A stretch of DNA of 3,382 nt. Origin: a virus. Its lineage: Duplodnaviria > Heunggongvirae > Uroviricota > Caudoviricetes. Both the position numbers and the translations under genes were made by a program. The stretch lies in the IMG/VR virus record IMGVR_UViG_2617270938_000006. One strand, written 5' to 3'. This document shows positions 1 to 3,382 of this stretch, in pieces. The notes under the pieces are model-generated. The model saw only the letters and a list, made by a program, of their open reading frames with translations, was not told the DNA's origin and did not search any database. Numbering within the stretch: the stretch's first letter is position 1; the number at the start of each line of letters is the position of its first letter.

Positions 1-198
1 ATCGCTGTTGTTCTTTTTCAGACGGGCCATGCACCCGCAAATGATCATCGCGTCATCGTCACAACATTGTGGGCGAGATTTTACTTTTGAAGGAATTAAT
101 CCCTTAAAACCGGCGGCAATGGACGACCAGGTCACATCTTCATGATTATTAGCCGCCCACGCTCCCCAACGCTCAAGAACCATCTGAATATCACGCAT
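1..198 (-). CDS. quuD: Q-type late-gene antiterminator, N-terminal 66 codons only (gene continues beyond the left window edge)
   Basis: Minus-strand ATG at 198-196 preceded by GGAG about 7 nt upstream; open frame with no stop to position 1. Translation [66 protein letters not shown] matches my recollection of the DLP12 QuuD N-terminus and contains a Cys cluster (CC...C-x-C). Sits downstream of rusA/ylcG as in lambdoid nin-Q regions. Not in the supplied ORF track because it is truncated. Confidence 0.7.
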
Positions 199-283
199 CA
201 ACTTACTCCACAAAAATCAGACCAGAACGCCAATTACAAGCAAAAATCAACAAAACAGTATTAGTTGATTGTTATCTCTGACT

Positions 284-421
284 TCATACTCCTGCTCCTG
301 TCAGGGTTTTGGCGTAATTCTTCAGTATTCGGTAATCGGTCAAAACAGAACCGGGGAAACGATATAAGCGCAGACGCCCCCAGCGGTGGCGAAGAAGTTC
401 TGCCATATAAAACTCAAACAT
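284..421 (-). CDS. Small phage protein, YlcG-like by position (45 aa from the ATG overlapping the rusA stop; 40 aa if it starts at the internal ATG 406-404)
   Basis: Minus-strand frame [45 protein letters not shown], stop TGA at 286-284. The first ATG (421-419) shares one base with the rusA TGA stop (ATGA coupling). Located between rusA and Q, where ylcG lies in DLP12. Sequence identity to YlcG not verified. Confidence 0.45.
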   Translation of the reverse strand: MFEFYMAELLRHRWGRLRLYRFPGSVLTDYRILKNYAKTLTGAGV

Positions 422-783
422 CATTCATTCCCCATTTCGGTGATGGTCAGTTCCAGCCTCCCACCTTTGGTAACAGGCATCTTCACAACGCGGTAATCAA
501 CGACCTGAGCATCATCCAGCCAGAAACCTGCTTTGGTGAGTGCGTCAAAAGCGGCTTTTTGCAGATTATCCAGGTCACGGCGACGGCGATCCGGCATGTG
601 GCACTCAATACGGATTTTCACTGGCATAGCCAGGCCGATATCCAGCATTGCGTTTTTAATGATTCGGGTGACGTTATCGCGGTATGCCTGCCCTTCTGCG
701 CTGATGTGTGTGCGCCCGCGATTATGGCGGTAGTAGCGGTTATTGCTCGGCGGCCAGGGTAGTGTGATGTGGTAAGTATTCAC
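421..783 (-). CDS. rusA: Crossover junction endodeoxyribonuclease RusA (Holliday junction resolvase), 120 aa
   Basis: ORF-track protein [38 protein letters not shown]... is near-identical to E. coli RusA as I remember it. Acidic residues D70, D72 and D91 (RRDLDNL...LDDAQ) are present. Start codon is GTG (783-781) preceded by AAGAGGGGG about 10 nt upstream, with an in-frame TAA two codons upstream. Confidence 0.95.
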
Positions 784-893
784 GCCTTAATTACCCCCTC
801 TTTCAGCCAGATATTTCCCGGCCTTTCTGTTATCAGAAATCCACTGAAAGCACAGCGGCTGGCTGAGAAGATAAATAATAAACGGGAGGCGGT
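784..893. promoter_or_regulatory. Divergent intergenic joint between rusA (-) and the plus-strand operon; putative promoter/operator region
   Basis: 110-bp non-coding gap between divergently oriented first genes. Contains both ribosome-binding sites (GGGAGG 884-889 for the 894 ORF; rusA SD on the other strand), an AT-rich stretch GATAAATAATAAA (870-882) and an 8-bp inverted repeat TCAGCCAG (803-810) / CTGGCTGA (859-866). No -35/-10 pair can be called reliably by eye. Confidence 0.3.
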
Positions 894-1085
894 ATGCACA
901 AAGCATCTCCTGTTGAGTTAAGAACGAGTATTGAGATGGCACATAGCCTTGCTCAAATTGGAGTCAGGTTTGTGCCAATACCAGTAGAAACAGACGAAGA
1001 ATTTCATACGTTAGCCACATCCCTTTCACAAAAGCTGGAAATGATGGTGGCGAAAGCAGAAGCAGATGAGAGAGACCAGGTATGA
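894..1085 (+). CDS. Hypothetical small acidic phage protein (63 aa), first gene of the plus-strand operon
   Basis: ATG at 894 with strong SD GGGAGG 4 nt upstream; 63 codons; net acidic (about 11 D/E against 6 K/R). Its TGA stop (1083-1085) overlaps the ATG (1082-1084) of the next small ORF. Size and position recall the orf61/orf63-type small genes of lambda's pL operon, unverified. Confidence 0.6.
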   Translation: MHKASPVELRTSIEMAHSLAQIGVRFVPIPVETDEEFHTLATSLSQKLEMMVAKAEADERDQV

Positions 1086-1165
1086 CAACCACTGAATGCA
1101 TTTTTCTGGCAGCGGGCTTCATATTCTGTGTGCTTATGCTTGCCGACATGGGGCTTGTTCAATGA
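1082..1165 (+). CDS. Candidate 27-aa hydrophobic micropeptide MTTTECIFLAAGFIFCVLMLADMGLVQ (single predicted transmembrane helix)
   Basis: Absent from the ORF track (too short). ATG 1082-1084 overlaps the upstream stop as ATGA; its own TGA stop (1163-1165) overlaps the ATG (1162-1164) of the downstream ORF, again as ATGA. It bridges exactly the 77-nt gap between the two flanking ORFs. About 20 consecutive hydrophobic residues. Confidence 0.4.
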   Translation: MTTTECIFLAAGFIFCVLMLADMGLVQ

Positions 1166-1377
1166 CACCTCAGCAAGAAAACGCCCTTCGCAGCATTGCC
1201 CGTCAGGCTAATTCTGAAATCAAAAAAGCCAGACAGCATTTTCCGGATAAAAACGTCGATGACATTTGCCGTAGCGTACTAAAGAAGCACCGCGAAACGG
1301 TAACGCTGATGGGATTCACACCGACTCATTTAAGCCTGGCGATCGGCATGTTGAACGGCGTCTTTAAGGAACGGTGA
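1162..1377 (+). CDS. Hypothetical small basic phage protein (71 aa)
   Basis: Frame of track ORF 1096..1377, but I favour the internal ATG at 1162 (MTPQQENALRSIARQANSEIKKARQHFPDKNVDD...) because it is stop/start-coupled to the micropeptide and the 1096 ATG has no SD. Net basic (about 12 K/R against 7 D/E). Function unknown. Confidence 0.5.
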   Translation: MTPQQENALRSIARQANSEIKKARQHFPDKNVDDICRSVLKKHRETVTLMGFTPTHLSLAIGMLNGVFKER

Positions 1378-1398
1378 ACATGAAAAGCAAAATCATCA

Positions 1399-1426
1399 GG
1401 GAGCTACAGGCTCCTTTTTTATTATT
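1399..1426 (+). terminator. Putative Rho-independent terminator
   Basis: GGAGC (1400-1404), 5-nt loop TACAG, GCTCC (1410-1414), followed directly by TTTTTTATTATT (1415-1426); 22 nt past the stop at 1377. The stem is only 5 bp (extendable to 7 with G-U/A-U at the cost of the U-tract), so strength is uncertain. Confidence 0.35.
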
Positions 1427-1475
1427 CGCATTTACCCTCAAGCGTATTAACCAACAATTCAGGGATTAATGAAAG

Positions 1476-1694
1476 ATGGCAGACATCATTGATTCAGCAT
1501 CAGAAATCGAAGAATTACAGCGCAATACAGCAATAAAAATGCGTCGTCTGAACTACCAGACTGTATCCGCAACTCATTGTTGTGAGTGTGGCGATCCGAT
1601 AGATGAGCGAAGACGCCTAGCTGTTCAGGGTTGTCGGACTTGTGCGAGTTGCCAGGAGGAGATCGAACTTAAGAACAAACAATGGGGACTGTGA
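1476..1694 (+). CDS. TraR/DksA-family C4 zinc-finger protein (72 aa), likely RNA-polymerase secondary-channel binding regulator
   Basis: Exact C-x2-C-x17-C-x2-C spacing (Cys35, Cys38, Cys56, Cys59: HCCECGDP...GCRTCASCQ), the DksA/TraR zinc-finger signature. N-terminal D3-x-x-D6-x-A8 (MADIIDSA) matches the DxxDxA tip motif of this family. AGGGA about 10 nt upstream of the ATG. Confidence 0.85.
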   Translation: MADIIDSASEIEELQRNTAIKMRRLNYQTVSATHCCECGDPIDERRRLAVQGCRTCASCQEEIELKNKQWGL

Positions 1695-1741
1695 TGGCCT
1701 CAAAGCAGCAAATTTCAACATCGTCCAACTGAGGTGTAAAA

Positions 1742-2020
1742 ATGTTCAGAATCATTTTTCCTAACACCTGGTACGTCGACCACCACGGCACTCCCTGCAA
1801 AATCCTGCGTTCTACCCACAACAAAGTTCACTACATCCGAAAAGGCAGAACATGTATCGCCAGCATGTTCCGCTTTAATCATGACTTTGAACCTGTGAAT
1901 AAAGCTGATGCAGATCGGATAGCAGAAGAGATCGAAACGGCAGAACACATTAAGAAGTTACGTGACATGCGTTCAAAAAGCAGAGGTAACCATGGAATCA
2001 TACAGCCTCACACTCGATGA
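1742..2020 (+). CDS. Hypothetical phage protein (92 aa) immediately upstream of, and overlapping, xis
   Basis: ATG at 1742 with SD GAGGTG 5 nt upstream. Overlaps the xis start by 29 nt in a different frame. The core WYVDHHGTPCKILRSTHNKVHYIRKGRTCIASMFRFNHDF loosely resembles small DUF4222-type prophage proteins as I recall them, unverified. Confidence 0.55.
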   Translation: MFRIIFPNTWYVDHHGTPCKILRSTHNKVHYIRKGRTCIASMFRFNHDFEPVNKADADRIAEEIETAEHIKKLRDMRSKSRGNHGIIQPHTR

Positions 2021-2363
2021 GGCCTGTCAGTTTCTTAAGATATCCAGACCAACCGCCACCAACTGGATACGAACAGGCCGCCTACAGGCAACACGTAAAG
2101 ATCCAACCAAGCCAAAATCTCCTTACCTCACAACACGGCAAGCCTGCATTGCGGCGCTTCAGTCTCCGCTGCATACTGTCCAGGTGAGCGCGGGTGATGG
2201 CATAACAGAGGAAAGAAAATGTCACTCTTCCGCAGAAATGAAATATGGTATGCCTCGTATTCGCTCCCGGGCGGGAAACGAATTAAGGAATCTCTTGGCA
2301 CAAAGGACAAGCGGCAAGCTCAGGAGTTGCACGACAAGCGAAAAGCAGAACTCTGGCGAGTAG
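1992..2363 (+). CDS. xis: Excisionase (Xis), AlpA/Xis-family helix-turn-helix DNA-binding protein; 123 aa if the frame is read to its stop
   Basis: ATG at 1992 with SD AGAGGT 4 nt upstream (the track's 1962 start is a GTG without SD). N-terminal [37 protein letters not shown] is a typical excisionase HTH/wing and matches my memory of P22/DLP12-type Xis. Lies directly upstream of int. The frame stays open to 2363, 145 nt into int in another frame, so the 3' boundary is less certain than the 5' end. Confidence 0.75.
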
Positions 2364-3382
2364 AAAAGCTAGGGGATTTACCTGATGTCACTTTTGAAGA
2401 GCCCTGCCTAAGATGGCTTGAGGAAAAAGCTGATAAAAAATCTCTCGATTCAGATAAAAGCCGGATTGAGTTCTGGCTTGAACATTTTGAGGGTATAAGG
2501 CTTAAAGATATCTCGGAGGCAAAGATTTACTCTGCTGTAAGCAGAATGCATAACAGAAAGACGAAAGAAATATGGAAACAGAAAGTTCAGGCCGCCATCA
2601 GGAAAGGTAAAGAACTGCCTGTTTATGAACCAAAGCCAGTATCAACTCAGACAAAGGCAAAGCATCTTGCCATGATAAAGGCCATTCTCCGTGCTGCAGA
2701 ACGCGACTGGAAGTGGCTGGAAAAAGCGCCTGTCATCAAGATACCAGCGGTCAGAAACAAGCGAGTCAGATGGCTGGAAAAGGAGGAAGCAAAACGCCTT
2801 ATTGATGAGTGCCCCGAACCACTGAAATCTGTCGTCAAGTTTGCGCTGGCAACTGGTCTGAGAAAGTCGAACATCATAAATCTGGAATGGCAACAAATCG
2901 ACATGCAGCGACGAGTTGCCTGGGTGAATCCAGAAGAGAGCAAATCAAACCGCGCCATTGGTGTGGCGCTGAACGATACCGCCTGTAAAGTGTTGCGTGA
3001 TCAAATAGGCAAGCATCACAAATGGGTGTTTGTACATACCAAGGCGGCTAAGCGAGCAGATGGAACATCAACGCCTGCGGTCAGGAAGATGCGCATCGAC
3101 AGCAAGACATCATGGCTATCAGCTTGTCGTCGTGCAGGAATTGAAGATTTCCGTTTCCATGACCTCAGACACACCTGGGCAAGCTGGCTGATTCAGTCAG
3201 GCGTCCCATTATCAGTGCTTCAGGAAATGGGCGGATGGGAGTCCATAGAAATGGTTCGTAGGTATGCTCACCTTGCGCCTAATCATTTGACAGAGCATGC
3301 GAGGAAAATAGACGACATTTTTGGTGATAATGTCCCAAATATGTCCCACTCTGGAATTATGGAGGATATAAAGAAGGCGTAA
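2219..3382 (+). CDS. int: Phage integrase, tyrosine site-specific recombinase (P22/DLP12 IntD-type), 387 aa, complete
   Basis: ATG at 2219 with SD GAGG about 7 nt upstream; TAA at 3380-3382. N-terminus [33 protein letters not shown] and C-terminus ...[29 protein letters not shown] match my recollection of P22 Int / DLP12 IntD. Catalytic signature visible: R215 (TGLRKS), H314-x-x-R317 (FHDLRHTW), Y349 (VRRYAHL). Confidence 0.95.

Follow-up and report, generated by a model that had tools for sequence, protein, structure and literature searches.

The lambda orf63 to orf61 block in a decayed Escherichia coli prophage, and a probable overlooked 27-residue early gene within it

In an intact lambdoid phage, the block that contains orf63 and orf61 would be transcribed from pL, downstream of exo and orf60a. 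The two genes belong to the exo-xis region, the core of which has been studied since at least 2013, and the open reading frames (ORFs) of this region are transcribed early from pL (PMC8614690). Deletion of orf63 or orf61 raises lysogenisation and host survival and makes induction delayed or weaker, which amounts to a mild pro-lytic role, with Phi24B affected more strongly than lambda (PMC5575149, PMC6213356). Adsorption of Phi24B is among the further phenotypes reported for the orf61 deletion. In a CRISPR interference (CRISPRi) study of lambda, annotated orf61 and orf63 were non-essential, and knock-down of either left plaque formation unimpaired (PMC10695390). Orf63 exists as an obligate dimer, in a cleft of which an amphipathic helix can be bound (PMC10869804), the t2 terminator and the mRNA levels of the exo-xis region have been described (PMC4195576), and the product of lambda orf73 is an RNA polymerase secondary-channel regulator that binds the polymerase and reprograms transcription (PMC9239242). 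Here, we examine a stretch of 3382 bp from the virus record IMGVR_UViG_2617270938_000006 (the window), in which three short plus-strand ORFs at 894–1377 had been singled out, in an original prediction from the letters of the sequence, as the most plausible place for an undescribed small system. We are confident that this block represents the stretch from orf63 to orf61 in the lambda-type exo-xis accessory region (early-left, pL operon); as such it is already known, and the placing of it among the early-left accessory genes of lambdoid phages was correct.

The three plus-strand ORFs are ORF63 (894–1085; 63 amino acids, acidic, with a pI of 4.96 and a net charge of about -5), a hydrophobic ORF of 27 codons (1082–1165; grand average of hydropathy 1.62, without lysine or arginine) and ORF71 (1162–1377; 71 amino acids, basic, with a pI of 10.0 and a net charge of about +5). 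Both junctions are ATGA start/stop overlaps. The sole strong Shine–Dalgarno (SD) site among the three starts is the GGGAGG of orf63 at 884–889 on the plus strand; the calculated duplex with the anti-SD sequence is worth -10.9 kcal/mol before ORF63, compared with -5.6 before the 27-residue ORF and -4.7 before ORF71. The original prediction had given this architecture accurately, from the tight coupling and the charges to the single strong SD site, and its proposal to compare the proteins with those of lambda orf61 and orf63 was the right check, both being products of lambda exo-xis genes. Window positions 850–1480 matched 183 phage records and are about 97% identical to lambda over their full length; phage 21, Stx phages of the 933W/Sakai type and Phi24B are also matched. 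The longer segment 812–1671 is 95.6% identical to the lambda reference (NC_001416), in an alignment that runs through orf60a, orf63, orf61 and orf73. In lambda the block occupies 31196–30839 on the complementary strand, with gene order and overlaps identical to those in the window, and the same t2 terminator and then orf73 follow.

ORF63 was said to contain no recognisable domain, which does not hold: it matches DUF1382 (Pfam PF07131) over 60 of 60 profile positions with E = 7.7e-31 and 106.4 bits against a cutoff of 27, and it matches PHROG 292. It differs from lambda Orf63 at four of 63 residues, and against the nuclear magnetic resonance (NMR) construct of lambda Orf63 in the Protein Data Bank (PDB; entry 8DSB) 58 of 62 residues are identical (E = 7e-33). 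From this identity to the NMR construct, ORF63 would be expected to form the same intertwined dimer, built from a pair of helices and a single strand, with a helix-binding cleft. Selection on this and the other frames was gauged from the ratio of non-synonymous to synonymous polymorphism (pN/pS), with variable sites counted over 103–118 distinct haplotypes. For orf63, synonymous and non-synonymous sites stand at 13:18 over 897–1081 (pN/pS 0.38, p = 0.008) and at 19:19 over 967–1081 (pN/pS 0.26, p = 6e-5).

ORF71 appears to be the full-length form of lambda orf61. The stretch that encodes it has about 97% nucleotide identity to lambda, the protein matches PHROG 303 at E = 1.7e-35, and the gene lies between orf63 and orf73 (zf-dskA_traR); over 1166–1374 there are 19 synonymous to 12 non-synonymous sites (pN/pS 0.18, p = 3e-6). 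The window carries a run of six A residues at 1222–1227 on the plus strand, where the lambda reference has seven (30862–30868; positions 3363–3369 of locus L002), a +1 frameshift in orf61. The six-residue run is found in 147 loci and the seven-residue run in 18, these being lambda records, contigs resembling lambda from unrelated assemblies, and a single IMG/VR locus (L090). In addition, lambda has GGA at the place of a TGA stop at 1091–1093 of the window. The longer run and the lost stop together make the annotated 61-residue ‘orf61’ of lambda a frameshifted hybrid, whereas the window keeps the intact 71-codon ORF; a published remark that lambda Orf61 “appears truncated” agrees with the frameshift. 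Contigs of up to about 48.5 kb (L174–L187), all with the seven-residue run, were found in assemblies under labels that include Shewanella, Pseudomonas, Bradyrhizobium, Oceanobacillus and Kitasatospora, and are taken to be contamination with lambda control DNA, judged from their sizes and the seven-residue variant alone.

A search of 5.8 billion proteins with ORF71 returned Escherichia sequences only, and a scan of the GTDB genomes gave only Escherichia matches plus lambda-like contigs in unrelated assemblies. Matches at 51–79% identity were considered as distant homologues and set aside, being frameshifted or deletion-fused copies of the same gene. The family thus appears confined to lambdoid prophages of Escherichia, with no true distant homologues in these searches. 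The AlphaFold2 (AF2) model of ORF71 is a three-helix bundle (helices 3–26, 32–49 and 54–64) with a predicted local distance difference test score (pLDDT) of 87. It has been proposed that the protein binds DNA in a sequence-specific manner, has a homeodomain-like fold of three helices and alters gene expression, and the published Orf61 model was superposed on the PAX3 homeodomain at 1.83 Å (PMC8614690). The basic character of ORF71 and its confident three-helix model are in keeping with this. However, a Foldseek comparison of the model with the PDB gave no match with E below 1, no helix-turn-helix (HTH) or homeodomain family of Pfam matched at E <= 1, and three-helix bundles are too generic for functional inference; we therefore regard DNA binding of this kind as a tentative possibility and rather doubtful. 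As a separate observation, the segment GFTPTHLSLAIGMLNGV (window 1309–1362, about residues 50–67 of ORF71) resembles the core of a single ankyrin repeat. An ankyrin-like motif in the C-terminus was considered, from a phmmer match to an ankyrin fusion at E = 2.8e-4, but no single stretch is significant and the likeness is probably due to chance.

Between these two genes lies the 27-residue ORF. Its product, MTTTECIFLAAGFIFCVLMLADMGLVQ, is identical in lambda, where the ORF lies at 31008–30925 on the complementary strand and is unannotated in the records NC_001416 and PV340536. An exact look-up of the peptide found it as ‘hypothetical protein’ only, in some E. coli records (UniProt A0A0A2SGE8, 981 contigs), and its sequence is absent from the searchable literature. 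Two members of the peptide cluster with 428 residues are an unrelated long protein and were discarded as a clustering artefact. Three gene models have to be compared for the DNA that follows orf63: the 61-residue orf61 of lambda, the 93-residue Orf61 of Phi24B and 933W, and a 27-residue peptide followed by a 71-residue protein. Over 1085–1161, the 27-residue frame has 13 synonymous to 10 non-synonymous sites (pN/pS 0.23, p = 0.0006), compared with 6:17 in the frame of the 93-residue extension (pN/pS 0.78, p = 0.38) and 5:18 in the third plus-strand frame (pN/pS 0.99, p = 0.58). Purifying selection is therefore seen in the 27-residue frame as well as in orf63 and ORF71. When the comparison is restricted to 1097–1161, the extension frame stands at 4:11 (pN/pS 0.85, p = 0.49) and the 27-residue frame has a pN/pS of 0.25. 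Polymorphisms present in at least three haplotypes within the peptide region are all synonymous in the 27-residue frame, which is open in 100 of 102 haplotypes, and a variant that is 93% identical has four synonymous and two non-synonymous changes in the peptide. The ATGA coupling of this ORF also persists where another gene, a methylase, replaces orf63. Antisense ORFs at 964–1149 and 1004–1168 were rejected as coding (pN/pS 1.28 and 0.58–0.80); an antisense signal over the peptide (0.32–0.35) is a shadow of the wobble position, the same antisense ORF giving 1.28 over orf63.

Phi24B and 933W carry the same locus, with 96% nucleotide identity in the case of Phi24B, and their 93-residue Orf61 (PMC8614690) shares the C-terminal 71 residues with ORF71; the literature start lies 22 codons upstream, where the evidence presented here favours a separate 27-codon gene in another frame. 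On the two-gene model there would be no peptide gene, and orf61 would be a 93-residue protein from the ATG at 1096, with its first 22 residues overlapping the 27-residue frame. The 93-residue frame is open in all 102 haplotypes, each of which has the ATG at 1096; the alignment of PHROG 303 extends over the entire 93 residues, 93 residues are annotated in many records, and this is the form modelled in PMC8614690. The support from PHROG and the databases is, however, circular because it derives from earlier gene calls. Against the longer protein stand the pN/pS of its extension (0.78–0.85, compared with 0.23–0.25 for the 27-residue frame), the absence of an SD site before ATG 1096 (-3.9 kcal/mol), and a single-sequence AF2 model of the 93-residue form in which residues 1–22 have a pLDDT of 40–54 and the core one of 72–88. 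In addition, ORF71 begins 8 nt past the stop of a 250-residue gene in an L004-type variant, and the PGAP call is 71 residues. The two-gene model is therefore unlikely, and the model with a 27-residue peptide and a 71-residue protein, which the original prediction had also adopted and with which the frame-specific selection signal agrees, is, on the pattern of polymorphism, the one we believe to be right, with somewhat better than even confidence that the 93-residue model is wrong. In much the same measure, we consider it probable that lambda-like phages do translate the 27-residue ORF as a genuine early gene, one that is missing from the lambda reference annotation.

Early operons of phages encode small membrane peptides that are translationally coupled, among them lambda Kil and other inner-membrane proteins of fewer than 50 residues. 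The putative 27-residue product resembles these in general character, being very short and hydrophobic, encoded within an early operon and overlooked in standard annotation. Its hydrophobicity suggests that the product is probably a small membrane peptide with a single helix. With the published orf61 deletions, the 27-residue ORF may have been lost as well. It could be speculated that, in nature, the cleft of the Orf63 dimer takes up the peptide or one of the ORF71 helices as its ligand, but we give this little credence; natural mosaics that lack orf63 weigh against an obligate complex of Orf63 with either.

Such mosaics bear on the question of whether the three genes work together. Of the 80 IMG/VR loci with ORF71 as anchor, all three genes are present in 68, and in 11 orf63 is replaced by a gene for a 185-residue Dam-type N6-adenine methylase (867–1424 in loci of the L053 type), which also occurs in E. 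coli genomes (H97–H99), including BL21. In these 11 loci homology resumes exactly at the ATG of the 27-residue ORF, with which the stop codon of the methylase gene shares an ATGA. In another, common variant (P0010, with 344 member sequences) an unrelated gene of 250 codons replaces orf63, the peptide gene and the first six codons of ORF71. Diverged DUF1382 genes, 76–80% identical, are found in other prophage contexts, where they are followed by Ead/Ea22 genes or by a gene for an unrelated 71-residue protein. The co-conservation across relatives to which the original prediction had looked thus gives way where orf63 is exchanged for the methylase, or orf63 and the peptide for the 250-residue protein. 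Because natural mosaics separate the genes, the three do not form an obligate module. The orf63 segment is present in 2947 of 5426 complete E. coli genomes, and the segment with the 27-residue ORF and ORF71 in 3248 of the 5426. The frequent co-occurrence of the three genes reflects recent common descent of a block that is at least 93% identical, rather than functional interdependence.

It had been suggested that an acidic and a basic protein together with a membrane peptide form a toxin–antitoxin, host-takeover or anti-defence module that acts as a unit. The charge complementarity and translational coupling of the three ORFs, and their location in a phage accessory region, fit this suggestion, as does the effect of the whole exo-xis region on host replication and the cell cycle (the ‘bin’ phenotype, cited in PMC9239242). 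Nevertheless, none of the three ORFs had a PADLOC match at E <= 0.1, and their Pfam and NCBIfam matches include no toxin or antitoxin family. The genes are also separated in nature, with the methylase in 11 of the 80 loci, ORF71 without orf63 or the peptide, and diverged DUF1382 genes without ORF71. Phages from which orf63 or orf61 alone has been deleted are viable, and their phenotypes are mild (PMC5575149, PMC6213356), both genes were non-essential under CRISPRi (PMC10695390), and lambda itself carries an intact orf63 beside a frameshifted orf61, a state that would be hard to tolerate if either product were the antidote of the other. A module of this kind is highly improbable. Nor is the system undescribed, since ORF63 corresponds to 8DSB, ORF71 to orf61, and the deletion phenotypes have been published.

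That ORF71 is a cell-division protein of the ZapA type can be dismissed as scarcely credible: NCBI gives the name ‘cell division protein ZapA’ to many of its variants and Pfam ZapA (PF05164) matches residues 3–35 weakly (E = 0.038), but the score of 14.7 bits falls below the gathering cutoff of 23.8, hhalign against an E. coli ZapA sequence gave a probability of 4.9% over 25 residues, and the model is all-helical over its 71 residues, unlike ZapA, which consists of an alpha/beta head and a long coiled coil. Among the records inspected, it was frameshifted or partial copies that bore the ZapA label, which looks like a misannotation that has been propagated.

The following scheme can be proposed for the block in an intact phage. 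Translation of orf63 would start from its own strong SD site, and the 27-residue ORF and the 71-residue orf61 product would probably be made by termination–reinitiation at the ATGA overlaps. The products would be an acidic Orf63 dimer with a cleft, a basic three-helix protein as modelled for ORF71, and a putative membrane peptide. The published net effect of orf63 and orf61 is a mild pro-lytic bias of the lysis–lysogeny decision and of prophage induction, for which we judge the binding of host or phage regulators, and not toxicity, to be the most likely mechanism.

The candidate terminator that had been placed 3′ of the block is present: an 8-bp stem at 1398–1416 with a T-run, together spanning 1398–1426 on the plus strand, has a folding energy of -10.2 kcal/mol (z = -2.5 compared with shuffled sequences), and the hairpin sequence is the same as that of the predicted t2 between orf61 and orf73 (PMC4195576, Table 4). 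It is enclosed by a further plus-strand ORF of 31 codons (1374–1469; 29 from the ATG at 1380), which is coupled to the ORF71 stop, has an SD site of -11.0 kcal/mol before ATG 1380 and shows weak purifying selection (pN/pS 0.38, p = 0.03). This ORF is annotated in phage 21 and in one lambda record. A 31-residue peptide from ribosome profiling is cited in PMC8614690, and from its length only it would correspond to the ORF at 1374–1469. Ribosomes that translate this ORF across the t2 hairpin might modulate the read-through into orf73. The orf73 homologue itself, at 1476–1694 on the plus strand, encodes an intact TraR/DksA zinc finger protein of 72 residues.

The setting of the window copy differs from that in lambda, as it lies within a deleted prophage that lacks exo and pL. 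At the left end of the window is the start of quuD, the antiterminator Q gene, on the minus strand, followed on the same strand by ylcG (284–424) and rusA (421–783). A truncated remnant of orf60a (DUF1317) occupies 769–921 on the plus strand, in the frame shared with lambda orf60a and with the intact DUF1317 gene (5955–6110) of an E. coli chromosome locus, L001. At its 3′ end the remnant overlaps with the beginning of orf63, and its 5′ part was lost at a deletion junction at 812..813, which fuses the exo-xis block to the nin-region side (quuD, ylcG, rusA and roughly the final 30 nt of ybcO). L001, L168, lambda and phage 21 show the intact order of orf60a followed by orf63, and in intact relatives exo and orf60a lie upstream of these genes, with pL farther up. 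The evidence for the junction is that window 1–813 equals L001 381–1193 at 100% identity and window 812–3382 equals L001 6001–8571 at 99.96%, with the approximately 4.8 kb between the two L001 stretches absent from the window; homology of the exo-xis side to both lambda and L001 begins at 812. The missing 4.8 kb comprise, in L001, most of ybcO, ninE, ybcN, ren, P, a portion of O, fragments of regulators and the 5′ end of orf60a, and the remnant also lacks pL, N, exo, bet and gam. The description of the block as the head of a plus-strand operon therefore holds within the window only, in that the truncated orf60a overlaps ORF63 and 812/813 is a deletion scar.

To the right, the neighbour order fits exo-xis, namely orf73 (TraR-like), DUF4222, an xis-like ORF, intD and tRNA-Arg. 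The tyrosine integrase gene intD (2219–3382, plus strand) closes the run of small plus-strand ORFs, and in complete E. coli genomes it adjoins a tRNA-Arg gene, which is the DLP12 prophage site. An xis-like HTH ORF at 1992–2363 extends 145 nt into the intD coding region, and PGAP gives a short partial pseudogene here; the excisionase of the remnant looks degraded. Other strains have differing deletions at the same prophage site (argU). The block lies in a decayed prophage of the DLP12 type, situated at the tRNA site argU of E. coli. A consensus scan of 600–1750 found no sigma70-like promoter on the plus strand, and an Rfam scan of the whole window at E <= 1 gave no match. With pL and everything upstream lost through nested deletions and no sigma70-type promoter found on the plus strand, the three-gene block is probably poorly expressed or silent here. 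In the window it is a hitch-hiking remnant and no working module.

Some considerations count against the account given here. The pN/pS counts treat variable sites as independent, when the sequences are closely related (at least 93% identical), and translation of the 27-residue ORF is deduced from sequence evolution alone. Read-through or a non-consensus promoter may still express the block in the remnant. For a mechanism through regulators, the reports of Orf63 partners are limited to the yeast two-hybrid hits YqhC, Ren and Q (PMC8614690).

The block is among the commonest prophage segments of E. coli, present in more than half of the complete genomes, and the papers on two of its genes span a decade; it is no candidate for a new system. 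What goes beyond the literature, and is probably real, is a corrected gene model for lambda orf61 together with the overlooked 27-residue early gene. A conserved gene for a membrane-type peptide of 27 residues appears to be unannotated in the best-studied phage. The label ZapA for the ORF71 protein is unsupported and is spreading through records. If the 27-residue gene is real, the true product of orf61 is the 71-residue protein and lambda orf61 is a frameshifted pseudogene. The 93-residue and 61-residue models of Orf61 in the literature are probably both wrong at the N-terminus. The frameshift would also fit the weaker effects of orf61 deletion in lambda than in Phi24B.

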